Part shown: positions 25,009 through 35,888 of the stretch, one piece after another
Position numbering within the stretch: position 1 is the stretch's first letter
Layout: each line of letters opens with the position of its first letter
NCBI GenBank assembly: GCA_949299565.1
Contig: OX437086.1
Span: 880,099 to 944,098 of the forward strand
Reading direction: 5' to 3'
From: an uncultured Bacillota bacterium
GTDB taxonomy: Bacteria > Bacillota_I > Bacilli_A > RFN20 > CAG-826
DNA length: 64,000 bases
Notes under the pieces: model-generated
What the model was told of the DNA's origin: nothing
What the model saw: the letters and a program-made list of their open reading frames with translations, nothing else
The model's database searches: none
Made by a program: the position numbers and the translations under genes

Positions 25009-25452
25009 GTTTCTTTATCTTAAACATTAAGCCATAAGAGTTCCTTAATCATCAAAGAAAAAACATTTTGTGCGACTACTTTGTTATTATTCTGAGTTAT
25101 TACACAACAAGATTTAAAAAATGTCGAAAAGAAAAAAGAACTTTAATGCTATAAAAAATTTTTCCATTTTATTTCTCCTAACTCTTTCAATTTTTCAAAA
25201 GCGTTTGCATCTATTATTGTGTCTAACCACGGTCCGTTCCCTCCTTCGTCAAAAATGCCGTTGGTACGAAGGCTATCTAATTAAAGATGGCTGAGAGAAA
25301 TCTTCTATAAGCAATGATTTAGTTCTCAACAAGCATTATTAGTCGAATGCTTTTATTTATGCTTTTTCTTTTTTCATAAAAGTTAAACAACAACTCGATG
25401 TATTGAGCTTTTTAAAGATGACTAATTTTTTGATGAAACTTATTCGCGGTCG

Positions 25453-26247
25453 TCAAATATTGCTGATAATGTTAAATAATAAAACGAAAATCAAAACAAG
25501 AAACACTATGAGGCCAAATAAATAACCCATGGAATATGCTATATCGTTTTTCTTATTATTTTTATAACTCGTTTTTTTGCGTACTATTTTTTTATTTTTG
25601 GGAGATATACTGTTTTTTACAGTACCTTGCGTTTTATTGATATTTTTATGTTCAGACAAACGTTCCCAATGCCGCGCAGGGACGCATTTTTTTAAAGCAT
25701 TATACGCTTCTAGATGTTCATCAACTATTTTTCGACAAGCTATTTGATACCTATTAAAACTGGCCATTGGAATGGTTCCATCATAAAGAGAATCAATATC
25801 ATTAATGATCAAGTCGACGCCATTGTTATACATTCCTGTCTCATATTCTATCTTTAAATGTAAAATAAGATGCTCTAAAAGATTGCAGTAGGTTAAAACG
25901 TCAGGTTGGTGAAAGCTAATATATAACGATGAATAAGGTTTATTTGGACCAACATACAAATTCTCTTGCTTAGATAGTTGCGGGTATTTATTTTCAAGAT
26001 CATGATGAATTGAAAGTCCTTCTAACCCGCGCTTAATCGATTTGTTTTGTTTGAATGTATAATTTTTATCAACAATAAAATAAGAACCACTAACTTTCCC
26101 ATATTTGGTTTTAAGAGCTCTTAAGCATTGCTTATAGTTCAAATCACAATATAAATGCTGGAGAAATCTTTCATCTTTTTGAATTTTTTGATATTCAGCT
26201 TCCCCCAAACTTGAGTTTGCTGATTTAGATTCATTGGTTGATTCCAT
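25453..26247 (-). CDS. Hypothetical tail-anchored membrane protein (island gene)
   Basis: 264 aa; soluble N-terminal domain, Lys-rich linker and a single C-terminal TM helix; AT-rich codon usage like neighbouring island genes. Confidence 0.5.
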   Translation of the reverse strand: MESTNESKSANSSLGEAEYQKIQKDERFLQHLYCDLNYKQCLRALKTKYGKVSGSYFIVDKNYTFKQNKSIKRGLEGLSIHHDLENKYPQLSKQENLYVGPNKPYSSLYISFHQPDVLTYCNLLEHLILHLKIEYETGMYNNGVDLIINDIDSLYDGTIPMASFNRYQIACRKIVDEHLEAYNALKKCVPARHWERLSEHKNINKTQGTVKNSISPKNKKIVRKKTSYKNNKKNDIAYSMGYLFGLIVFLVLIFVLLFNIISNI

Positions 26248-26577
26248 ACTTAAATTATATGCTTAAGTTTTGCACAATAGCTTTTATTAAGAATTACTAT
26301 AAAACCAACTTTATAATATGCAACTAAAGATGCACTGCCATTAATTTCACCATAAAAATTATGACGAATATCAATTCAGAAAACGCAAAATGATTGATAT
26401 CGCTATTGCAGATGATGATAAAGTAGTCGTTCTTTTGTGTTTTTATATGTCTATGACTCAAAATATAGAAAAATTTTAGCTAAGAAAATAATAACAAAAA
26501 CTTTCATTGCCTTGTCACTGAAACTAATATCACCATATTTTTTAGGGAGTAGCACGCGTACAAATATGACGTAAATT

Positions 26578-28440
26578 TTACCTAATTTTTAGCATTTTCT
26601 TTATATGTTCATTCAAAGCTTTATCTTCGCAAAATATATAGCATCCTTTTTGCCCACGCGTTAATAGGGTGCGATAAGTGTTTTTGATGATAATATCGCA
26701 ATCTTTTTCGTGAAGCGGGTTATTCTTGTAGCCCTTTAGTGATTTGTCAGTTTTAGCTCTTGCATCTTTGTTTGTTAAAACATTACCGTGCCTATAGATT
26801 AGGTCTTTTCCAATAATCACACCAACGTGATCAAATTCAAGCCCCTGACACGTGTGAATGCAGCCTATTTGATCAAAAGAGTCCTTATCTATTGCCCAAG
26901 TCTTGGTGTTTGAAAAGTTCCACTGAGCTTTAAAATCGCTCCCTATTTGAATATCAAATTTTGTCAAATCATCACGACTTATCCAATCATAACAATAACC
27001 CGCAACAATTCTAGACTTATTGTTTATCTCGTTTTTCTTTCTCAGCTCTTCCCTCATTGCAGAAGGGCTATCGAAGACCTTTATATCATATTCCTTTCGG
27101 TCGAAACTAACATTCGCTGTAGGCCTAATTTCTAGCAAATTATCTAAAAAAGCTAAGTATGCGTCACTACCATTACATCTAAACTGAGATGTTAGCGTCA
27201 ACTCTTTTCCAAAATAGGCTTTTGAATCTAAAATTTTAGCCCATTTTTTAATTTCGTCTATTGAACCGATATCGCTGGAAGTAATTCTTTGATCCTCGTC
27301 AATAAAAAAGACGCTAACCTTCGCTGCGTTAATTATTTCTTTTATTTGGTTTTCGCCTTTGCCGTTAAAAATAGATTTTTTGTTCAAACGATGAGCTTCA
27401 TCGGCAATGATACAATCGAATTCGTTTTTAGTGGAGTCAACAAAAACACCACTGCCTTTAAATAAATTTTTAATATACGCTTTTTTAAAATCTCCACCTG
27501 CGAGTTTTTTATAATAAACTTCTCGTGGTGCACTATTCTTAGAAGTGTAGATAGCATTAAAACCATCGCGAATTAAACTCGACAGCATCTTGATTGCAAT
27601 CACAGATTTTCCAGTGCCAGGACCGCCTTGAACGATAATGGTATGTTTAGTGTCGGTTTTTAGACTCTCATTAATCGTTTTCAAAATAGTTTCATATGCT
27701 ACCTTTTGCTCATCCAATAGTTTAAAAGAATCATTTCCTTTAATTAACCTTTCGATTTCATCTTGTAAAGCAGTTGATGGTCTAATTTTTCCATTTTCAA
27801 TTTCGTATAAAATTTTTCCATCATCAGGATTAACAACATACTTCTTTATAAAATCAGCCAGTTTTTTTCGATCCCTTTGTAGAAAAAGCGGAGCCTCTTT
27901 TATTATAGTTCGATAGCGCTCATCTTCGATTTTATATCGATTTGATTCATTGAAATTATGAAGAAAGGCGCAAGGAATCATTCGAATATTCTTTTTTTGA
28001 ATAGATTCGTTAAAATTCTCGATAGTTTTCGCATAACTATATGCTTGATATGATGGGTGTGCCTCTTCTCTATATGCTCTTGCGACATAGGTTATTACTA
28101 TATCCTTCTTGTCGCTTAGTTCTATATCTTCCCATTGCTTAAGTTCTATGATGACTGCGTTGCTTTTGCCGTGATCGTCTCTACCTGTGATTATAAAATC
28201 AATTCTTTTCGATGTTAGAGGAATTTGAAGTTCTATTGCGACGTTTAAATTTCTATTTATTCCAAAAGATTCATCAAAAACTCCATCAATCTGCGGCAAC
28301 GAGTTCTCAAAGGCACGATGTTCCCTTGGATTATTATGCGTGAGTCCTTGCTTGCGAAACCCATCCTCGATTCGATCAGCAATGACGCCATTTATAATGT
28401 CTTCATGAAATTTGCTTACGATGCTAGAGTAGATTATCAT
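26578..28440 (-). CDS. PD-(D/E)xK nuclease-like N-terminal domain fused to a DUF2075/SF1-helicase-like P-loop ATPase
   Basis: N-terminal IDFIITG ... AVIIELKQW (D ... E-x-K); Walker A VQGGPGTGKSV; Walker B/DEAH-like CIIADEAHRL; motifs SQFRCNG and CQGLEFDHVGVIIG; start ATG overlaps the MazG-like stop (ATGA). Confidence 0.8.
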   Translation of the reverse strand: MIIYSSIVSKFHEDIINGVIADRIEDGFRKQGLTHNNPREHRAFENSLPQIDGVFDESFGINRNLNVAIELQIPLTSKRIDFIITGRDDHGKSNAVIIELKQWEDIELSDKKDIVITYVARAYREEAHPSYQAYSYAKTIENFNESIQKKNIRMIPCAFLHNFNESNRYKIEDERYRTIIKEAPLFLQRDRKKLADFIKKYVVNPDDGKILYEIENGKIRPSTALQDEIERLIKGNDSFKLLDEQKVAYETILKTINESLKTDTKHTIIVQGGPGTGKSVIAIKMLSSLIRDGFNAIYTSKNSAPREVYYKKLAGGDFKKAYIKNLFKGSGVFVDSTKNEFDCIIADEAHRLNKKSIFNGKGENQIKEIINAAKVSVFFIDEDQRITSSDIGSIDEIKKWAKILDSKAYFGKELTLTSQFRCNGSDAYLAFLDNLLEIRPTANVSFDRKEYDIKVFDSPSAMREELRKKNEINNKSRIVAGYCYDWISRDDLTKFDIQIGSDFKAQWNFSNTKTWAIDKDSFDQIGCIHTCQGLEFDHVGVIIGKDLIYRHGNVLTNKDARAKTDKSLKGYKNNPLHEKDCDIIIKNTYRTLLTRGQKGCYIFCEDKALNEHIKKMLKIR

Positions 28441-28763
28441 AACTTATCATATTTAAGAGATTTTGATTTGCATTTTTCAATAGGATATTTTCTTTTCGTT
28501 TTTTCAAGTTTATCTAAAACAATTTTATTGATATCAAGATTCAAGACTTGCGCCATTTGAATACAATAATTAATTACATCGGCAAGCTCGTCTTTTACAT
28601 CATTTGAGTTGAAGTTTTTCTCATCCCATTGAAAACACTCAAGAAGTTCGTTGGCTTCAATGGAAATAGATTTAGCTAAATTAGCGGGTGTATGAAATTT
28701 GTTCCAATCTCTCTCGTCAACGAATTTTTTAATTTCCGCTTGCAATAAATCTAGTTTATCCAT
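28437..28763 (-). CDS. MazG-like nucleoside-triphosphate pyrophosphohydrolase (small all-alpha type)
   Basis: 108 aa with the EExxE-type metal-binding segment (SIEANELLECFQWDE, DELADV); translationally coupled to the nuclease-helicase gene. Confidence 0.75.
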   Translation of the reverse strand: MDKLDLLQAEIKKFVDERDWNKFHTPANLAKSISIEANELLECFQWDEKNFNSNDVKDELADVINYCIQMAQVLNLDINKIVLDKLEKTKRKYPIEKCKSKSLKYDKL

Positions 28764-28858
28764 GATTTTATTTTATCATTGTTAAAGATTAAAAAACTAA
28801 AGAAATGTTCGGCACTGCTTTTCAGTATCGGAGTATCAAAATAACCACTTCAATATTG

Positions 28859-28879
28859 CTTAACTTTTTAAAAGTTAAG
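28859..28879 (-). promoter_or_regulatory. 21-bp near-perfect palindrome upstream of the MazG-like/nuclease-helicase operon (candidate operator)
   Basis: CTTAAC-TTTTTAAAA-GTTAAG, about 100 nt upstream of the MazG-like start; AT-rich, so not a convincing terminator. Confidence 0.3.
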
Positions 28880-29088
28880 AAGCTACATGGTACTAGAATC
28901 GCCTCACATTCTTGTCTGAATCATTTGCATAGCCGTAACATCTGCCGTCGAAATGCTCAAATTGTTCCAAATCATGAGTAACCTCAATACCCTCTAGCAA
29001 AGAAGGCAACAAACCAAAGCAAACAACCCTGTTGCAATAAGTTTGGCAGCTAACAACAAAAAACTCAGTCCTATAACTCAGTAATCGA

Positions 29089-29769
29089 TTATTCAACCAT
29101 AAGAGTTCCAATGAATTGACCAACATTTGACCCTAGTTCTTCTTTAAGATCATATAAATCTTCACAAAATTCTTGTTCATTCTTGATTGCAATTTTAATT
29201 TTGTCTTTATAAATTGCGAAGTCCAAATTGCGCTTATTGTGATGGAAAAAATTTTCAACCTGTAATTCTAAGTATCTTTTAGAATTCTCTTTACAATTTT
29301 CAAGCATCTTTTTCCTATCTAAATTGAAAATTTTATCGTCATGCATTAACAAAAATAATTCAAATGTCGGATTTGAAATACAAAGCTTGTATCCTTTTTC
29401 ACAACATAATTTTAAATAAGTATCATATTGCTCCGATTTAAAATTCTGAGGATCACGATCAAAAACGAATACTGCAATATCAACATCCTTATCATAATTA
29501 ATTTTGCCTTCTTTTACTGAGTCCTCAAAATTATTGATTTTACGTTTTAAATGACTTTGACCAACTTCGTCTTCCTCGTTTTCAATAATAGTAAGCTTTA
29601 TAAGTTTGTTTAGATGAAGACATTCGCTATTGTTTTTTAAGCCTTCAAAATATCTTATTTCAGTTACATCGCCCTCCGAAACAATAAAACAGAATTTATT
29701 AAACTCTCTATTATTTCTTTTTCTATCATAATTACTTTTGCTGCCAAGTTCTCTCATCAAACACCTCAT
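29089..29769 (-). CDS. RloB-like protein (AbiLii-like partner of the upstream ATPase)
   Basis: Motifs CFIVSEGDVTEIRYF and CISNPTFELFLLMH match my recollection of the RloB family; start overlaps the ATPase stop (TAATG). Confidence 0.7.
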   Translation of the reverse strand: MRCLMRELGSKSNYDRKRNNREFNKFCFIVSEGDVTEIRYFEGLKNNSECLHLNKLIKLTIIENEEDEVGQSHLKRKINNFEDSVKEGKINYDKDVDIAVFVFDRDPQNFKSEQYDTYLKLCCEKGYKLCISNPTFELFLLMHDDKIFNLDRKKMLENCKENSKRYLELQVENFFHHNKRNLDFAIYKDKIKIAIKNEQEFCEDLYDLKEELGSNVGQFIGTLMVE

Positions 29770-31112
29770 TAAGCGAAGTAATTATTAAAATTAGGAATTC
29801 CACCATATCGTCCATCTAGATAGGCCTTATCAACTTTTTTATCAAATCTTTCGCCAAATTCTTCAAGCGAATATACTGTGGTTGGTCCATTATTTTTTCT
29901 TTCACAAAACCAAATCTCATCCCTTCTCAAAAGATCCAAATCCAATAAACGAGTTTCATGTGTAGTTACAACTAATTGAGAATTTGATGTTTTAGAAAAG
30001 AAAGACTTAATAAATTCGAAAGAAAGATCTGGATGAAAACATCTATTAAGTTCATCAATAAAATAAACTTTCTCAGAATGATCATCCATTAAAACTTGAA
30101 TCAAATCAAATAACCTTTGAGTACCATCGCTCTCTTCATCAAATTCATATAACCCGTCGTCATTTCTGTGCTGAAAAGTTATTTTCTTTAGTTGATAAGA
30201 GTTATCTTTTTTGCCGAGAAAGTAAATATTGTTATTGAGCCTTATATTAACTTGCGGATTGGTCTTTTTATTCTTAGAAGCATTAAACTGTTCAAATTGA
30301 TTGAGTAAATCATTAAATATAACAGGAGGCAATTTATTTTGAAGTTCTTCAAGTGGACAATCGACCAATTTGCATTCTGATATACCAGTTCCAAACTTTG
30401 AAATTAAAGCATTTATCTCATTAATTTTCTGGTTAGAAATGAAAAATTTAGAGTTGTCTAAAGACATATTTGGGAAAATAACAACCAACGAATTAGAAAA
30501 CCAATTAAATATTTTTTTAAAAATCATTACACTATTATTTGCGTTTTCTTCATATAAAGTGTCCTTGTTGGTATTCATCAATGTTAAAAACAAAATATTG
30601 TCCTGATTTTTAATATCAGAGTAATAAATATTAAGCCTATTTAAAATATCTTCTTCAAAATAATTTTTGCTTAACTTTATTCCGCCATTTGTGACTCTTT
30701 TAAAAATCAAAATATCTTTCTCATCAGGACCAAGTTCATACAGCCATTCGGCCTTAATGCTATTTTTAGAGAGTAATATATCAAAACCATAGGTATATAT
30801 CTTATTATCAATTTCAAACTCAAAATCAAAAGTAGAAATTTTATCTTTATTCTCTTTTTTTCCTCTGTAATAACAACTCGACCAATTAATTCTAATGCCT
30901 TCTAAAACTACTCTTTTGAAAAAGGCAACAGCCTTAATTAAATTTGATTTCCCAGAAGCGTTTGCTCCGTATAATTCAGCAAATTTAAGTATTTTCAATT
31001 TGCCCTTATTAACACAATGATCAACTTTCTTTTTAGGAGCTCCAGCCACCATCGATATTGTTTGCTTTGAGTCAAATGATAAAAAATTCGATATGGTATA
31101 GCTAATTAGCAT
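29769..31112 (-). CDS. AAA/ABC-type ATPase (AbiLi-like, AAA_21-type)
   Basis: Walker A GANASGKSN near N-terminus; split-ATPase C-terminal motifs DEESDGTQR, Walker B VYFIDELNRCFHP, TTHE; RBS AGAGGAGG upstream. Confidence 0.8.
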   Translation of the reverse strand: MLISYTISNFLSFDSKQTISMVAGAPKKKVDHCVNKGKLKILKFAELYGANASGKSNLIKAVAFFKRVVLEGIRINWSSCYYRGKKENKDKISTFDFEFEIDNKIYTYGFDILLSKNSIKAEWLYELGPDEKDILIFKRVTNGGIKLSKNYFEEDILNRLNIYYSDIKNQDNILFLTLMNTNKDTLYEENANNSVMIFKKIFNWFSNSLVVIFPNMSLDNSKFFISNQKINEINALISKFGTGISECKLVDCPLEELQNKLPPVIFNDLLNQFEQFNASKNKKTNPQVNIRLNNNIYFLGKKDNSYQLKKITFQHRNDDGLYEFDEESDGTQRLFDLIQVLMDDHSEKVYFIDELNRCFHPDLSFEFIKSFFSKTSNSQLVVTTHETRLLDLDLLRRDEIWFCERKNNGPTTVYSLEEFGERFDKKVDKAYLDGRYGGIPNFNNYFA

Positions 31113-31134
31113 GGCTTACCTCCTCTTTGGTTAG

Positions 31135-31227
31135 ATTATAAGTGAAATTATCACTTGCAACAATCTTATTGAGTAATAAATTAACCTTATTTTGAAAATA
31201 TTTTATAAATTAAGGTGAAATTTTCAC
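31135..31227 (-). promoter_or_regulatory. Promoter of the AbiL-like operon with two palindromic operator-like sites
   Basis: Minus-strand reads GTGAAAATTTCAC (31215-31227, perfect 6-bp arms) ... TTGCAA-GTGATAATTTCAC (31142-31154)-T-TATAAT (31135-31140), then RBS and ATG at 31112; the second palindrome lies between the -35-like and -10 hexamers. Confidence 0.4.
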
Positions 31228-31302
31228 ATTGATTTAAAAGTATCGCCATGTTTTTTATTCTAAATAAGGTATTAAGACAATCAATTAAACCGCCACTGTA
31301 TT

Positions 31303-31328
31303 AAATAAAACAGCACCATTAAGTGCTG
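31303..31328 (-). terminator. Candidate Rho-independent terminator after gene 31426..32202
   Basis: Minus-strand hairpin CAGCAC-ttaatg-GTGCTG followed by TTTTATTT; stem is only 6 bp. Confidence 0.35.
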
Positions 31329-31425
31329 AAATTTGAGAATGTCTTTGTGTTATCGATTTAATACAAAACGATACCCCCTGTTAGAAAAATGACACCATTA
31401 TAAAGTGTTTATTTTGTTTGGCTTT

Positions 31426-32202
31426 TTACTTTCTCCTTCTCTTTCTTGTCGTTTTTTTCGATTTTTCTAAGCCTAATTTCCAAAGCCCCATATCCAAAAG
31501 TTTCATTTGTGGATATTCAATTGATGGGAGGTCTTTTAAAGTTAAAGTTTCCATCTTTTTTCTAATCTTTTTTTTATTTTTTGAATAGAAATCGACTAGC
31601 GCTTCGAATGAATTTTTACCGAATCTTTGAACTAATTCTTTTTCTCCGCATTCCTCTTTTCCAAATTTTAGTGCTCCTTTTAGCATCTCATCGTAAGCAG
31701 GAACGCATCCTAATGTTCCTAAGAGAATCTTCGTAACTAGAATGTCCGAAATAGCTTGATTAGTTGACTCGTCTTCGTTCCTAGCTTCTCTTCTAAAACG
31801 CTCATATTCTTTCTTAATTGAATTTATTAGTCCTTCATTACCTTCACTACCGAAGAGTAGATCTAAATTTGAAGAGTAGTTCTTATCACCTTTGTCCCAG
31901 CAATAGCCAATTAAAGGTTTATATTTATCATTGAGAATTAATTTGACGGTTTGAAGATGAACTTTGTAATCAAATTGCAACAGAAAAGATGATCCACGGT
32001 ACATTCCCCATGATGCAAGATAAAAAGCAAGGTGCAATGACAAATTCAAGTAATCATCTTCATTTAATTCGTTCAATTTATCGAATGCTTCATGAAATTT
32101 ACCATAACAATATTCCCAAGACAAATATCTAGAATTTGCATTGCTATCTATCTCTCTCTTAAACTTATTAAAAGATTTAATAAATTCATTAATAAATTTC
32201 AT
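31426..32202 (-). CDS. Hypothetical protein (island gene, basic C-terminal tail)
   Basis: 258 aa ORF with AT-rich codon usage; no family recognised; ends in a Lys/Arg-rich tail. Confidence 0.5.
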   Translation of the reverse strand: MKFINEFIKSFNKFKREIDSNANSRYLSWEYCYGKFHEAFDKLNELNEDDYLNLSLHLAFYLASWGMYRGSSFLLQFDYKVHLQTVKLILNDKYKPLIGYCWDKGDKNYSSNLDLLFGSEGNEGLINSIKKEYERFRREARNEDESTNQAISDILVTKILLGTLGCVPAYDEMLKGALKFGKEECGEKELVQRFGKNSFEALVDFYSKNKKKIRKKMETLTLKDLPSIEYPQMKLLDMGLWKLGLEKSKKTTRKRRRK

Positions 32203-32324
32203 ATCTATGCCTCCCTATATTTTTCAAAGAATTTATCTTCACCTGCTCTTCTAGCTTTAATAACATCTATTTTATATTTGAATCTGCCGAGCAAATGTGA
32301 TCTGTGTTGAAATATAATTTGAGC

Positions 32325-32650
32325 TACCTATAGTCTTCGCTCCCTATCGTAATGAACGCCTGTGATGTCTGATGTGTTGCTTTTTTGGAATTTCCAATAG
32401 TTCTTTTGTTTTTCTTATAGGCAAAGCTAACCACTGTCAGTCTACCGAATTTTTGACCAATCAAGTCCCTCACCATGAAACGACTTCAACCGCTAAATTT
32501 GACCTGGCCAGTATGGAGCATGTTGACATTGAATTCTACCTCTTTTTCACAAACGCAACGTCATTTATAAATCTTTGTGGAATGATGCTTCTTCCCAGTA
32601 TCTTCGATCACAGTCAGATAGACATAGCGTTTCCCAATTTCAATATTCAT
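32325..32650 (-). pseudogene. Decayed gene fragments sharing an N-terminal G-x-K/R-F/Y-G-R-L-T-V motif
   Basis: Minus-strand short ORFs MNIEIGKRYVYLTVIEDTGKK (stops after 29 aa, with a Cys-containing continuation in another frame) and MVRDLIGQKFGRLTVVSFAYKK (50 aa, 32325..32477); GC content differs from flanks. Confidence 0.3.
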
Positions 32651-32765
32651 TTGCTTTGTAACCAATCAATAAATTTATAAACAAAATTGAAACCAAAAAA
32701 ACGAAAATAAAAGGATGGTTGTCGCCCACCACCCCAATTCAATCAAAGGAGGTTCTCATAGAACC

Positions 32766-33755
32766 TTAATCTTGTCTACTTACCTCCTTATCCAGGTTTT
32801 TAGCTAGCTTTGTGAAGATATAGCTATATTTCACATAGGTCTTTCCACCAAAGTCTTTGTTGTTTGTCGTTCTAATGCCATAAGGATTGAAGTTAAAGTC
32901 CTGCTCTTCCAAATCATCCTTGGCATCAGTGTTTTCGACAACGAGTTCACTGATATAAAGATTATTGGTTGGATGACCAAAATAGGAATTGATATCCCTC
33001 AAATTGACGTTTTGATAGTACTCATCAGCGGTTTTGCTATATGCAACATTGAAATAGATATCAAATGCATAAAGATAACCCATCGGCACAAAGTAATGCG
33101 ACAGATAAGTGTTGATGAGTAGACACTTATCAAGCAAATCCTGAATCAGTGACTTCAATCCGACATCGTAGCTTCTAATGACAACAAGATGGCTTTGAGC
33201 ACTAGAAGGCATGAACATTGAATAACCACTCTCCTTGGAGAAGACATTAACGTTTTCCGTGTCGAAGACCTCTCTTATGAAGTCGAATATTGCACTGGTC
33301 TTGACGAGCCTTAAATCAATAAGAATCTCACCACAGAACTTCTGCTTCTTCGATGCCTTCACGAACTGATTGAAAAGCCTGACTCCATATGCAGAATCAA
33401 AAAGTGTAGGCTGATTCACTTTATCGCTACCATTGGTTTGGTTGACGATTTCATAGTGGTTTTCAACTTTCACGACCTTGAATGATTGGCCGTTTGCGTT
33501 AAAGCAGATCTTATCGGCTTTTTCATCGTTGGTCAGAATATGGCAACAAACCAAGTTGTAATCCGCTGTTTTTCCTCCTTTTGACTGAGGATAGATGTGG
33601 TCGAGGTTCCATCCGTATTCGCTGTTGCGATTATCGTAGGCGGACTTAGCCATCGTCCTTCCAGCGAAATCCACAGCCCTGGTCTGCTTCCCGTACCTTG
33701 ACGTCCACAAACGCATTGCAGTTTCTCTGTTAACAATCATTTTTTCATTTTTCAT
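32766..33755 (-). CDS. HNH-nuclease-domain protein with unassigned C-terminal domain
   Basis: N-terminal GWNLDHIYPQSKGGKTADYNLVCCHILTN fits the HNH signature (D-H-x-x-P, N-L, Cys pair); the C-terminal about 230 aa has no motif I recognise. Confidence 0.65.
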   Translation of the reverse strand: MKNEKMIVNRETAMRLWTSRYGKQTRAVDFAGRTMAKSAYDNRNSEYGWNLDHIYPQSKGGKTADYNLVCCHILTNDEKADKICFNANGQSFKVVKVENHYEIVNQTNGSDKVNQPTLFDSAYGVRLFNQFVKASKKQKFCGEILIDLRLVKTSAIFDFIREVFDTENVNVFSKESGYSMFMPSSAQSHLVVIRSYDVGLKSLIQDLLDKCLLINTYLSHYFVPMGYLYAFDIYFNVAYSKTADEYYQNVNLRDINSYFGHPTNNLYISELVVENTDAKDDLEEQDFNFNPYGIRTTNNKDFGGKTYVKYSYIFTKLAKNLDKEVSRQD

Positions 33756-34445
33756 AATTTAATCTTTCAACAAGAAAAAAACTATGAGGTTGACCTCCTT
33801 TCATAAGGAGACGAATGCAATGATTGACTATAGGGCGACCTACTGCTGATACCTCGAAGGGTAGTTCTCTTAACAGCTTTGACAGAAAACTTTATCAATC
33901 AGCTCTAACTAAAGAGCTGTTAGATTCGTTCCTTACGTACTAATTATAACCGATGGAAACTATTAAAAAACGAAAATCTTGTGAATGCAAAAAAATGATA
34001 ACATTAGTCAAATTATTGCAATCAGCGCATAAAGTGTGAACTCTTAAATCTTTTTGATAAAACTTTTAGTCTATTTTGACTTTCTCATTGTTAAACCACG
34101 ACTTCGGAGGAAAATGCTCAAAAGATAAAGTTTTTTTCTAAACAAATATGACAAGTCCCAAAATGATTATTCTTTATTGTTTTCATACTAATATTTTAGC
34201 GTCATAAACTATGCAACCTAATCGTTTCTCTACTAGGCGTATCACATTTTCCTAGGGTATCTTTTTCTAGTAGCCTTAGCGTTCATCTAGTAGAGTTCTA
34301 TTTTGCTAGTAGCCTTAAACCACCTTTCGATTCCTTGGAGGTTTCGAACTTTAACTAGGAAAACTACTTAAAAAAATGCCCGATTTCTCGGACAAATATC
34401 GTTAATTTTGACACCCTTACTTTGTATCAAAATTTAGTTATAAGA

Positions 34446-34519
34446 TGGCAGGGGCTGAAGGAATCGAACCCTCATCAAAGGTTTTGGAGACCTCTGTTCT
34501 ACCATTGAACCAAGCCCCT
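34446..34519 (-). tRNA. tRNA-Trp (anticodon CCA)
   Basis: 74-nt cloverleaf folded by hand: acceptor AGGGGCT/AGCCCCT, D-stem GTTC/GAAC, anticodon stem GAGGT/ACCTT with loop CTCCAAA, T-arm GAGGG-TTCGATT-CCTTC, discriminator G and encoded CCA. Confidence 0.9.
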
Positions 34520-34563: not shown

Positions 34564-35175
34564 TTACTCCTCGCTCAATAACTCCGGAAGTTCTCCTCCG
34601 TTATATGGCCCGTCAATAACCTCAACATTGGGATATTGAGAAGTGATTTCTTGATAGGCTTTTTTGGTGATCTTCCGTTTGACGCCCTTATTGCCATATT
34701 TGATGTATTGCTCAAACAACCATTTGATGAATTCACGTGTCCCTTTAGCCATATAATAACGATCGACGCGCGCTAAAAAGTAGTTATAACCATTCTCGGG
34801 TTTATAATGCTCAGGATCATAAGTTTTCGTGGCCGCTAAAACGTCACATACATATTCCACCGCATATTTATAAGGCATTTGTTTGATGAGAATCCGGCCT
34901 TGCAAATAATCCGTCCAATATTCCCAATGATGCGCATTTCTCTTAGTGTGATGCTGACAAATCAAGGAGAAATAATTGTTCCGAATTCTCTCTTCAAAGA
35001 CCGGAGAACGAAAACCCGCATAATATTTTGCTGAAAGATGAAATTCCCGCCACCCGTATTTTGTGAGATCGTGCTTCAAAGCGTGAAAGAAAATCCCGAA
35101 ATGAAAGGCGTTCCTAATCACTTGATGACGATGTTTGGTGATTGTTCTTAAATGTTTAAAAGGATGCGACTTCAT
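34564..35175 (-). CDS. Conserved hypothetical protein, His-rich
   Basis: 203 aa ORF with several His-containing segments (HALKHDLTKYGW, CQHHTKRNAHHWEYW); 4-nt overlap with the upstream Sir2 gene; family not recognised with certainty. Confidence 0.5.
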   Translation of the reverse strand: MKSHPFKHLRTITKHRHQVIRNAFHFGIFFHALKHDLTKYGWREFHLSAKYYAGFRSPVFEERIRNNYFSLICQHHTKRNAHHWEYWTDYLQGRILIKQMPYKYAVEYVCDVLAATKTYDPEHYKPENGYNYFLARVDRYYMAKGTREFIKWLFEQYIKYGNKGVKRKITKKAYQEITSQYPNVEVIDGPYNGGELPELLSEE

Positions 35176-35888
35176 AAAATTTTCTCCAATGTCAAACTGA
35201 TGTCATCATGAACGATATAATCAAAGAAATCATCGTAAGGCGTCGCTTCATAATTGATGAGAAGCTTAAAGGCTGAAGAAGCATAATAAATAAGAGACGC
35301 TGCTGGCTCGACTTTTAAAGATGTTCCGGCAACCAACAAAAAATCTGCTTCCTTTAAAACCTCAATCGCTTTCTTTAAAACATCAAACGGCAAATTCTCC
35401 TCATATAAAACGATGTTCGGATGAAGAATTGCCCCGCACTTGCAACGCGGAATCTCTTGCCCTTTTACATCTTTTAAGTCGTAGAGAGATCCACAACGTT
35501 CACAATATAAGTCCTTTAGATTGCCATGGAGTTCTAAAACATGCTTAGAACCCGCTTCTTTATGAAGATTATCAATGTTCTGGGTGATGATCCAAATTTC
35601 ATGACCGCTCTCTTCATATTTACTCAAAAGGCGATGGGCTTTATTAGGCTTAGCCTCCTCATGAACCATGAATTCATAATAGAAACGATAAAATTCGCGT
35701 GGATGAGACAAAAAATAAGAACGCGAGAGCATCTCCTCATAAGAAACCCCGAATTCGCTTTGAAGGTTATAAAGTCCTTCTGGCGAACGGAAATCCAAAA
35801 TCCCGCTGGCGGTCGAAACGCCGGCTCCTCCTAAGAAGACTAAATGCTTCGCTTTCTTTATCTTTTCTTTGATCAACGTTAAATCCAC
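35172..35888 (-). CDS. NAD-dependent protein deacylase, Sir2 family
   Basis: GAGVSTASGILDFRSPEGLY, TQNIDNLH, a Zn-ribbon pair (CERCG ... CKCG) and HGNL all match sirtuin catalytic-core motifs. Confidence 0.85.
   Translation of the reverse strand: MDLTLIKEKIKKAKHLVFLGGAGVSTASGILDFRSPEGLYNLQSEFGVSYEEMLSRSYFLSHPREFYRFYYEFMVHEEAKPNKAHRLLSKYEESGHEIWIITQNIDNLHKEAGSKHVLELHGNLKDLYCERCGSLYDLKDVKGQEIPRCKCGAILHPNIVLYEENLPFDVLKKAIEVLKEADFLLVAGTSLKVEPAASLIYYASSAFKLLINYEATPYDDFFDYIVHDDISLTLEKIL

Follow-up and report, generated by a model that had tools for sequence, protein, structure and literature searches.

In a 64,000-nt stretch of contig OX437086.1 (assembly GCA_949299565.1, from an uncultured Bacillota bacterium), hereafter the window, whose positions serve as coordinates throughout, an open reading frame (ORF) of 329 aa with an ATG start (32766..33755, minus strand) encodes an HNH nuclease domain followed by a long C-terminal part of no recognized family. 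What such a protein does and whether it acts by itself are the questions raised by this locus, and an earlier reading made from the sequence only had proposed a standalone effector or a mobile nuclease. We found that the gene is one component of a cassette of ~1.25 kb, which in the window copy is made up, on the minus strand, of a promoter, a structured leader RNA, the HNH-palm nuclease gene, a structured 3' untranslated region (3'UTR) and a terminator. Judging from its homologues, the cassette is a member of a large uncharacterised family that pairs an RNA with an HNH nuclease. New here are the exclusive link of the Rfam motif RF03112 to one HNH-palm gene family, a covarying pseudoknot within that RNA, and the pairing of the RNA and its flank with two elements behind the downstream gene, its 3'UTR and its terminator loop. 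These structural findings rest on strong comparative evidence, and the mechanism that we propose, a nuclease mRNA that keeps itself closed to translation, is a hypothesis.

A leader RNA and an HNH nuclease gene in one cassette

The leader is a structured RNA of 125 nt (33808..33932, minus strand, as are all cassette features below) that matches the whole of the Rfam model RF03112, named 'Staphylococcus-1'. With 81.5 bits (E 1.5e-15) the window RNA scores under the gathering score of 87.7, so that routine annotation would miss it. Scores of relatives against the same model range widely (127 bits in loci L007 and L009, 69 in L011 and 51 in L002), and all of these fall into one alignment. Using a covariance model built here from four copies and excluding the pseudoknot, we obtained 154 bits for the window RNA. 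Rfam files RF03112 as a small RNA (sRNA) gene, not as a cis-regulator. The motif originates from the 2017 screen of Weinberg et al., the main text of which does not mention it (PMC5737381), and in the literature we found no paper on RF03112 or 'Staphylococcus-1' beyond that screen, nor any on an RNA linked to this HNH family.

The association between RNA and gene was examined from both sides. Starting from the protein, the covariance model matched exactly one RNA in 90 of 92 sources, always on the strand of the gene and ~45–60 nt before the start codon (in the window the RNA ends 52 nt before the ATG), and nothing else in the 976 kb scanned. The two sources with no RNA match lack upstream DNA, which brings the count to 90/90 where upstream DNA is present. 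Starting from the RNA, a degenerate pattern derived from its core was run against viral and metagenome contigs; all 5 viral matches and 79 of the 80 metagenome matches listed are immediately followed, on their own strand, by the HNH gene. The sole exception is a GC-rich chance match, and all 84 genuine matches thus precede an HNH gene. Overall, the nuclease family and the Staphylococcus-1 RNA always co-occur in a fixed arrangement, accompanied by no further conserved gene. A cultured carrier was also found: Mycoplasmopsis cynos NCTC10142 (NZ_LR214986.1; locus L217, 4846–5861) harbors the RNA (68.5 bits) together with a 285-aa homologue. In that record, which has a second matching place, the homologue is annotated as 'HNH endonuclease domain-containing protein' and adjoins a transposase, and PLSDB lists the 987-kb replicon as a plasmid.

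Comparison of 81 distinct sequences indicates that the RNA has a real structure, in which five nested helices are combined with a small hairpin and with a pseudoknot. The helices are P1 (33924–33932/33808–33816), P2 (33902–33917), P3 (33894–33900/33822–33828), P4 (33873–33877/33845–33848) and P5 (33830–33843), the small hairpin lies at 33851–33862, and the pseudoknot joins ~33885–33892 with 33863–33869. For the helices, paired cells make up 94% and double changes are seen at 26 of 30 pairs; none of 500 shuffles reached the observed value, and sliding the partners against each other lowered pairing to 34–45%. The pseudoknot covaries as well (CG:71/UA:10, AU:38/GC:8 and AU:71/GC:3). At the same time, many positions in stems and loops do not vary in sequence, the junction core among them.

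Regarding the protein, the ORF was recovered with exactly the ends that the sequence-only reading had given it, and the peptide taken there as the HNH signature (GWNLDHIYPQSKGGKTADYNLVCCHILTN, residues 48–76) holds the invariant catalytic residues. The claim of an N-terminal HNH nuclease was therefore borne out, both by Pfam, PHROG and NCBIfam matches and by the invariance of D52, H53, N67 and N76 among 43 aligned sequences, which correspond to the catalytic His (the general base) in a D-H pair, the structural Asn and the metal-binding Asn/His on the helix. The HNH core spans approximately residues 45–82 (33510–33623) and is followed by a beta-meander (residues 84–105). The window protein matches Pfam HNH_4 (PF13395) at E 5.6e-4 and 20.3 bits, just below the curated cut-off of 22, as well as HNH_5, a number of HNH families in PHROG and, at E 4e-7, the HNH portion of an NCBIfam Cas9d model. 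HNH_4 is matched at E <= 0.01 by 43/43 aligned members (best 1.4e-6), and distant family members score 25.5–31.7 bits, above the cut-off. In the predicted structure the HNH region adopts a beta-beta-alpha fold superposable on solved HNH domains, and the best structural matches of the N-terminal model are the HNH domains of Cas9, followed by those of retron, PtuB and Cap5 proteins. None of the PADLOC 2.0 families matched the window protein at E <= 1.

A search of 5.8 billion proteins yielded 1084 homologues, full-length at 300–330 aa and either unnamed or labelled 'hypothetical'; with more than 1000 full-length homologues the ORF is not a chance frame. Most members come from metagenome-assembled genomes (MAGs) of gut Bacillota (Clostridia, Bacilli and 'Staphylococcus sp. 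CAG:324'), and a few from MAGs labelled Prevotella, Phocaeicola or spirochaetes. Conservation is very strong across residues 6–105 and is followed by a variable linker and a second domain with its own invariant positions (D120, G124, L208, K210, C211, N215–Y217, Y221, L317, L321, K323 and E324). With the N-terminal domain alone as query, only fragments of the same HNH-palm family were recovered. The public annotation of an identical protein (P0001, 295 aa) begins at M35, the part of the window affected being 33653–33755. Such a start would drop the family-invariant R15, W17, G22, D29 and R33, and the real start is for this reason M1 or M6. Some departures from the common architecture were observed. 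One variant (P0166, 442 aa) carries two tandem N-terminal HNH modules ahead of the palm-like domain, the second lacking the Asp of the D-H pair. In several metagenome copies (L136/L164, 139 aa; L172/L173, 59 aa; L098) the RNA motif is intact and the HNH gene is shortened or fused to unrelated sequence. Such pseudogenised copies with an intact RNA fit a costly protein, and selection against the active protein in some hosts.

That the C-terminal part resembles nothing recognizable proved true at the level of sequence: for residues 120–329 (32769–33398), searches of Pfam, NCBIfam, PHROGs, PADLOC and PDB (phmmer and profile) returned only a weak match to YfjL_C (E 0.014), and neither a restriction-modification accessory nor another characterised family was found. 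Structure prediction was more informative, confidently placing these residues in a nucleotidyl-cyclase/GGDEF-like palm (beta-alpha-beta-beta-alpha-beta). The alignment of this domain shows no metal-binding Asp pair and no GG(D/E)EF motif, there is no Pfam cyclase match, beta1 (139–151) has no invariant acidic residue, and the beta2-beta3 hairpin (175–186) is variable and rich in indels. We rejected an active cyclase on the grounds of the missing catalytic acidic residues. The palm domain is probably not an enzyme; its probable function is dimerisation, or the binding of nucleic acids or nucleotides. When this C-terminal domain was used by itself as the query of an exhaustive HMMER search, only 83 clusters were obtained. 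Almost all have the same fusion to HNH, so the palm domain has no other detectable fusion partners.

The cassette has well-defined ends. Its promoter was read from the sequence as a -10 box TATAAT (33943..33948), kept at the same position in close relatives, and the likely transcription start ~7 nt past this box coincides with the 5' edge of the RNA motif. In other clades a full promoter, TTGAC(G/T)-17-TATAAT, is present and placed so that transcription begins at the motif. At the opposite end a terminator scan identified an intrinsic terminator (32706..32734; stem 32713–32734, followed by a U-tract), which forms the 3' end of the conserved cassette; across relatives its loop is kept and its stems covary. 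Nucleotide homology of the window copy to its relatives spans 33948 (at most 33994) to 32706, with the end placed at 32704–32709. In a second clade, homology sets in ~10–40 nt ahead of the motif and stops where the terminator ends, even for copies that are 87% identical, and copies at this identity sit between unrelated flanks with sharp ends. These boundaries indicate that the cassette behaves as an independently transferred module, in line with the mobile nuclease suggested earlier, its homology being bounded by promoter and terminator. No terminal repeats or target duplications were seen at the cassette ends, and no tandem arrays of the kind found in type III toxin-antitoxin (TA) or TIGR-like systems. 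Transposon-like ends were rejected as well, given that a 13-nt direct repeat around the window copy (32696–32708/33965–33977) is close to chance expectation in AT-rich DNA and was not seen in relatives.

The neighborhood of the cassette is highly variable. For the 131 genes directly beside it, matches to 138 Pfam families were recorded, none present in more than 4 loci, the commonest being phage integrase (4), GNAT (4), AAA_14 (3) and AAA_21 (3). No partner gene recurs among them, and given this scatter we rejected a conserved protein partner. The idea of a standalone effector accordingly stands as far as proteins are concerned; it fails in that the gene is always coupled to the 5' leader RNA and to 3'UTR elements that pair with the leader. 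Neighbours at other loci include integrases, AAA_21/AbiL, PDC-S01, methylases and components of Shosta and AbiE, and matches to defence models among them comprise PDC-S01, mad3, AbiLi, methylases, ShosA and AbiEi. Elsewhere the cassette lies next to a serine recombinase gene, to MobL, or to genes for terminase and portal proteins, and a tRNA gene lies within ~1 kb in roughly 1 in 6 loci. The genomic context of the homologues, which the sequence-only reading had singled out as informative, is thus variable, includes mobile-element and defence genes and is not confined to core housekeeping functions.

Pairing between the leader and the 3' end of the mRNA

The loop and 3' flank of P5 read GUCGCCC (33833..33839), a perfect 7-nt complement of the terminator loop GGGCGAC (32721–32727) located ~1.1 kb away, and in the window this duplex has an energy of -15.5 kcal/mol. 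The two segments covary in at least seven haplotypes. The most frequent combination is P5 GGUCGCCC with terminator loop GGGCGACA (54 cases), followed by GGUUGCCC with GGGCAACA (12), GGCCACCC with GGUGGC (7), GGUCACCC with AGGUGACG (4) and GGUCACCCC with AGGGUGACG (2), and by two combinations seen once each, GGCCAUCC with GGAUGGCA and GGCCGUCC with AGACGGCA. Represented among the haplotypes are GUCGCC/GGCGAC, GUUGCC/GGCAAC, GCCACC/GGUGGC, GUCACC/GGUGAC, GCCAUC/GGAUGGC and GCCGUC/GACGGC, plus G-U intermediates. The mean Watson-Crick run was 5.77 with the own partner as opposed to 4.54 with permuted partners (maximum 4.86 in 1000 permutations). Since G-U intermediates occur, pairing at the RNA level is favoured over an inverted repeat acting as DNA. 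Moreover, the P5 stem uses some of the same nucleotides as the duplex of P5 with the terminator loop, and covariation is seen in both, so that the RNA has at least two selected states.

A second long-range pairing involves the segment between the RNA motif and the gene. Here the leader sequence UAUGAAAGGAGGUCAACCUCAUAGU (33781..33805), which contains a conserved AGGAGG resembling a Shine-Dalgarno (SD) sequence and labelled SD#1, is the 5' partner of a duplex whose 3' partner is the 3'UTR segment UCUAUGAGAACCUCCUUUGAUU (32741..32762), with the anti-SD core ACCUCCUU; the two relate to each other as an inverted repeat. The leader segment can also form a local hairpin, H1, with 33809–33812. In the window the leader/3'UTR duplex reaches -22.2 kcal/mol (RNAduplex) and includes AAAGGAGGU paired with ACCUCCUUU, a pairing that also appears when the whole window transcript (1232 nt) is folded to its minimum free energy (MFE). 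Across the family, the sequences flanking this pairing covary, for example as GGAGGCACAG/CUGUGCCUCC, GGAGGUUUGU/ACAAACCUCC and GGAGGCAGU/ACUGCCUC. Permutation again separated own from foreign partners, with a run of 7.24 versus 5.93 (maximum 6.25 in 500 permutations) and, across the family, a mean duplex energy of -27.1 versus -20.0 kcal/mol. The 5' element itself is widespread: of 166 genes, 157 have [AG]GGAG in the 110 nt that precede ETAMRLW, a conserved motif of the N-terminus. A leader peptide starting after AGGAGG was rejected, as short ORFs were found in one clade only and are not conserved.

Local structures accompany these contacts. By folding, hairpin H2 (33753..33786) pairs CAUAGUUU (33779–33786) with AAAUUAUG (33753–33760) and buries the start codon, and the start region is covered by a hairpin in every clade examined. 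P1, H1, AGGAGG, H2 and the 3'UTR are joined by a chain of alternative helices. A further SD-like element, AAGGAGG, is found at the end of the ORF (32783..32789), where it is formed by the codons of the invariant K323–E324 and the next G. AAG-GAG-G is used in 134/134 genes with a C-terminal K-E, compared to 11.6% expected from codon use elsewhere in the same genes, where AAG accounts for 38% of Lys codons and GAG for 31% of Glu codons. This element can pair locally with the 3'UTR anti-SD to form a hairpin across the stop codon (H3, -13.4 kcal/mol). As a covarying partner of the 3'UTR it was rejected, the own-partner value being 6.18 and the permuted one 5.98, with pairing confined to the invariant core. 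On the plus strand, opposite the first part of the HNH gene, there is a promoter-like site, TTAACA-17-CATAAT (33730–33758), from which antisense transcription would enter the leader; such sites are no commoner in the region than expected by chance.

The window copy and its surroundings

The window cassette is located in an AT-rich island (25400–34400, GC content 0.25–0.33) beside a tRNA-Trp gene, in the company of AbiL and MazG/helicase genes. The gene had been described as richer in GC than its AT-rich neighbours; this holds for the island on its 3' side (0.37–0.42 versus 0.25–0.33), and the core-like DNA beyond the tRNA has the same GC content as the gene. The tRNA-Trp (34446–34519, minus strand) has its own terminator (34377–34394), and the island starts right after it. 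We rejected a tRNA-borne island with att repeats: no second copy of the tRNA-Trp 3' end is present in the window and no integrase was seen. The stretch upstream of the gene, previously characterized as non-coding with repeats, indeed comprises 690 nt of non-coding DNA; it holds the structured RNA, and its repeats amount to a single 17-nt pair with no tandem array. This direct repeat (34262–34278/34301–34317, 94% identical, 39 nt spacing) lies between the tRNA and the cassette promoter.

On the other side, the gene fragments noted next to the HNH gene are real and look like weakly matched remnants of a decayed phage-type HNH gene (32324–32680, minus strand), in the form of broken reading frames with a repeated 'IGxxFGRLTV'-like motif and matches to PHROG 374 (HNH endonuclease; E 4.5e-5 and 0.059). 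Between the cassette and the AbiL genes lies a 258-aa ORF (31426–32202, minus strand) that has no Pfam, NCBIfam, PHROGs or PADLOC match and is also present in an identical public contig. The AbiL-type pair (29089–31112, minus strand) consists of an AAA_21 ATPase (PADLOC AbiLi, E 3.9e-78) and a 226-aa ORF that adjoins it (common end coordinate 29769); an RloB domain is present in the gene that the identical public contig has at this position. Further along (26578–28763, minus strand), a 108-aa MazG-like gene overlaps the start of a 620-aa SLFN-g3/ResIII-type helicase gene, and the two look like a two-gene defence candidate. Just upstream of the tRNA (34564–35888, minus strand), a gene for a 203-aa DUF5662 protein has 4 nt in common with the end of a 238-aa Sir2-family gene; this may be a housekeeping deacetylase with an unknown partner.

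Readings of the cassette and known systems

The reading that we favour, and to which we give about an even chance, is that the cassette encodes a toxin-like nuclease whose mRNA is held translationally closed, and that it sits in defence islands and mobile elements. The full-length mRNA would fold into a closed, translationally inert form, which would keep a potentially toxic DNA nuclease unmade during normal growth. Opening of the lock would lead to expression and might be triggered by loss or trimming of the 3' end, by RNase action or by something that binds the leader motif, and the role would be that of an abortive-infection or defence function, or of an addiction-type toxin, on the islands and elements that carry it. 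The leader motif could act as a switch because its P5 stem and the long-range duplex exclude each other. We favour a locked nuclease because the intact catalytic residues, the lack of a partner protein, the dedicated leader, the 3'UTR anti-SD and the buried start codon together resemble the hok, aapA1 and icaR mRNAs.

Several observations weigh against this reading, for which the support is wholly comparative. In most clades the conserved AGGAGG lies 24–38 nt from the first AUG; at such a distance it may not be a working ribosome-binding site, and hiding it may not control translation. The window long-range duplex also engages the strand that buries the AUG, so that on and off states are not assignable from the sequence. 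MFE folds of whole transcripts give the leader/3'UTR duplex in the window and are inconsistent in 8 other loci, and the pairings could act between molecules, not within one. A pseudoknotted domain of 125 nt with many invariant unpaired bases exceeds the needs of a simple lock, which indicates a bound ligand or protein. The M. cynos copy has an altered P5 devoid of GUCGCC. Finally, no PADLOC model matches, and the defence neighbours are recorded as plain occurrences.

The main rival view takes the leader RNA to be a partner made for this protein, either an RNA antitoxin (type III-like) or a cofactor, that holds the nuclease inactive. The RNA would be made in excess, for instance by partial termination after the AGGAGG hairpin, and bound perhaps via the RRM-like palm; being labile, it would be lost during infection or transcription shut-off, freeing the nuclease. 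A one-to-one association in both search directions is typical for RNA-protein partnerships and unusual for riboswitches, the many invariant stem and loop positions suggest sequence-specific recognition, the palm/ferredoxin-like fold is devoid of catalytic residues, and a precedent exists in the abiF motif, which was found in the same 2017 screen upstream of its toxin gene. A hairpin and U-run between motif and gene are present in some clades; in the majority clade, however, the U-run after the motif is weak or absent. The RNA is also single-copy, with no tandem repeats, HNH enzymes are usually DNases and not RNA-processing toxins, and the covarying 3'UTR pairings place the motif within or on the full-length mRNA and would be superfluous for a simple antitoxin. 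We consider this view possible and rather unlikely. Equally tentative is its broader form, in which the RNA, the HNH-palm protein and the structured 3'UTR would constitute a new class of single-gene RNA-protein conflict system, the RNA being bound by the catalytically dead palm/RRM-like domain as antitoxin, sensor or specificity factor, and the protein being a compact RNA-dependent HNH nuclease with an architecture unrelated to Cas9/IscB.

Two further explanations are less likely than an RNA partner. The position of the motif in the 5'UTR directly after the transcription start, its compact pseudoknotted fold with an invariant junction core, the mutually exclusive P5 stem and long-range duplex, both under selection, and the chain of alternative helices from P1 to the 3'UTR would all suit a riboswitch-like sensor of a small molecule or of a cellular or phage factor, the ligand stabilising the motif including P5, thereby breaking or allowing the 3'UTR contacts and setting translation. 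Riboswitch classes, however, normally control several gene families tied to their ligand, and this RNA occurs with one protein family only (90/90 and 84/84); no gene of the cassette or its neighborhood points to a metabolite, and the Rfam classification as sRNA gene is likewise at odds with a cis-regulator. We regard a sensor as improbable. Lower still is the probability we assign to a selfish mobile cassette resembling a free-standing homing endonuclease, which would cut cassette-less genomes, thereby promoting its own spread, and whose RNA elements would only tune expression or take part in mobility. The sharp ends of 87% identical copies in unrelated flanks, the presence in viral contigs and beside terminase, portal, integrase and serine recombinase genes, and the proximity of a tRNA gene (within ~1 kb) in roughly 1/6 of loci are as expected of such an element. 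Homing, on the other hand, needs conserved flanks or a fixed target, and the insertion contexts are diverse; terminal repeats and target duplications are lacking, and relatives do not show the 13-nt repeat of the window; the cassette does not interrupt a host gene and does not lie within an intron or intein; and an RNA intermediate is unlikely because the ends of the unit include the promoter.

An orphan Rfam motif is now tied to a specific gene, which gives a directly testable hypothesis. RF03112 appears as the 5' third of a whole-mRNA architecture consisting of leader domain, leader/3'UTR duplex and P5/terminator-loop contact. To our knowledge, comparable 5'-3' closure has been described for only a few bacterial mRNAs. 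Natural compensatory variants in more than 100 sequences are ready material for mutational tests, and the cultured carrier M. cynos NCTC10142 provides an experimental entry point. The cassette is a candidate new toxin/defence module, compact, autonomous and horizontally moving. It is frequent among the Bacillota of human and animal guts (more than 1000 protein clusters), and none of the defence or TA catalogues searched lists it. If the RNA binds or directs the nuclease, this would be a new small RNA-associated HNH enzyme and possibly a tool.

The predicted palm fold is shared with class III nucleotidyl cyclases and GGDEF proteins, from which the domain differs in having no sequence-profile match and no conserved acidic residues. 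Septu PtuB, the retron Ec83/Eco7 HNH protein and CBASS Cap5 are HNH nucleases as well, are the best structural matches after Cas9, and are stand-alone nucleases inactive until a signal; unlike the present protein they need PtuA, reverse transcriptase and msDNA, or a SAVED sensor, none of which was found here. A structured RNA just upstream of an HNH protein, with an HNH domain of the Cas9-like HNH_4 type, is reminiscent of HEARO/omega-RNA-IscB and Cas9. In contrast to OMEGA/IscB, the cassette has no RuvC, no guide segment and no IS200/605 features, and its protein is much smaller and carries a palm-like domain instead. A guide RNA was rejected because neither end of the motif has a variable segment; P1 is the very start of the RNA, 7 nt past the -10 box, which leaves no room for one.

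Closer parallels exist among toxins controlled by RNA. In the RCd22/AbiF system, the abiF motif RNA neutralises its toxin through direct binding between RNA and protein, in cis and in trans (bioRxiv 10.1101/2025.04.15.648962; PMC12373285). As in abiF/RCd22 and ToxIN, a structured RNA lies directly upstream of, and is dedicated to, a toxic defence protein, the toxicity of the present cassette being presumed. AbiF and ToxN target RNA, and type III antitoxins are tandem repeats cut by their toxin, whereas here one copy of the RNA is combined with an HNH protein and with cis pairing to the 3'UTR. A ToxIN-like type III TA system was rejected for similar reasons, the RNA being single-copy and the HNH protein not resembling ToxN/AbiQ.

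For the proposed locked mRNA itself, the models are hok, aapA1 and icaR. Full-length hok toxin mRNA is inert until it is processed at its 3' end. In aapA1, the full-length toxin mRNA is inert with its SD hidden by folding, and 3' processing activates it (PMC5416894). Similarly, the 3' end of the present mRNA is predicted from its sequence to fold back on the 5' leader, hiding the ribosome-binding region, with hairpins covering the start. The aapA1/IsoA1 and hok/Sok systems differ in that they consist of small membrane peptides and antisense RNAs; here the product is a 329-aa soluble nuclease with a large pseudoknotted leader and no antisense RNA known. In icaR of Staphylococcus aureus, initiation is blocked because an anti-SD stretch of the 3'UTR pairs with the SD at the 5' end (PMC3868564). 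The C-rich 3'UTR anti-SD of the cassette would pair with its own SD region in the same manner, and the duplex could block initiation and feed RNase III. Unlike the present gene, icaR encodes a regulator, has neither a structured leader nor a terminator-loop contact and is known from a single species; here the same principle may have been put to use by a nuclease carried in a mobile cassette.

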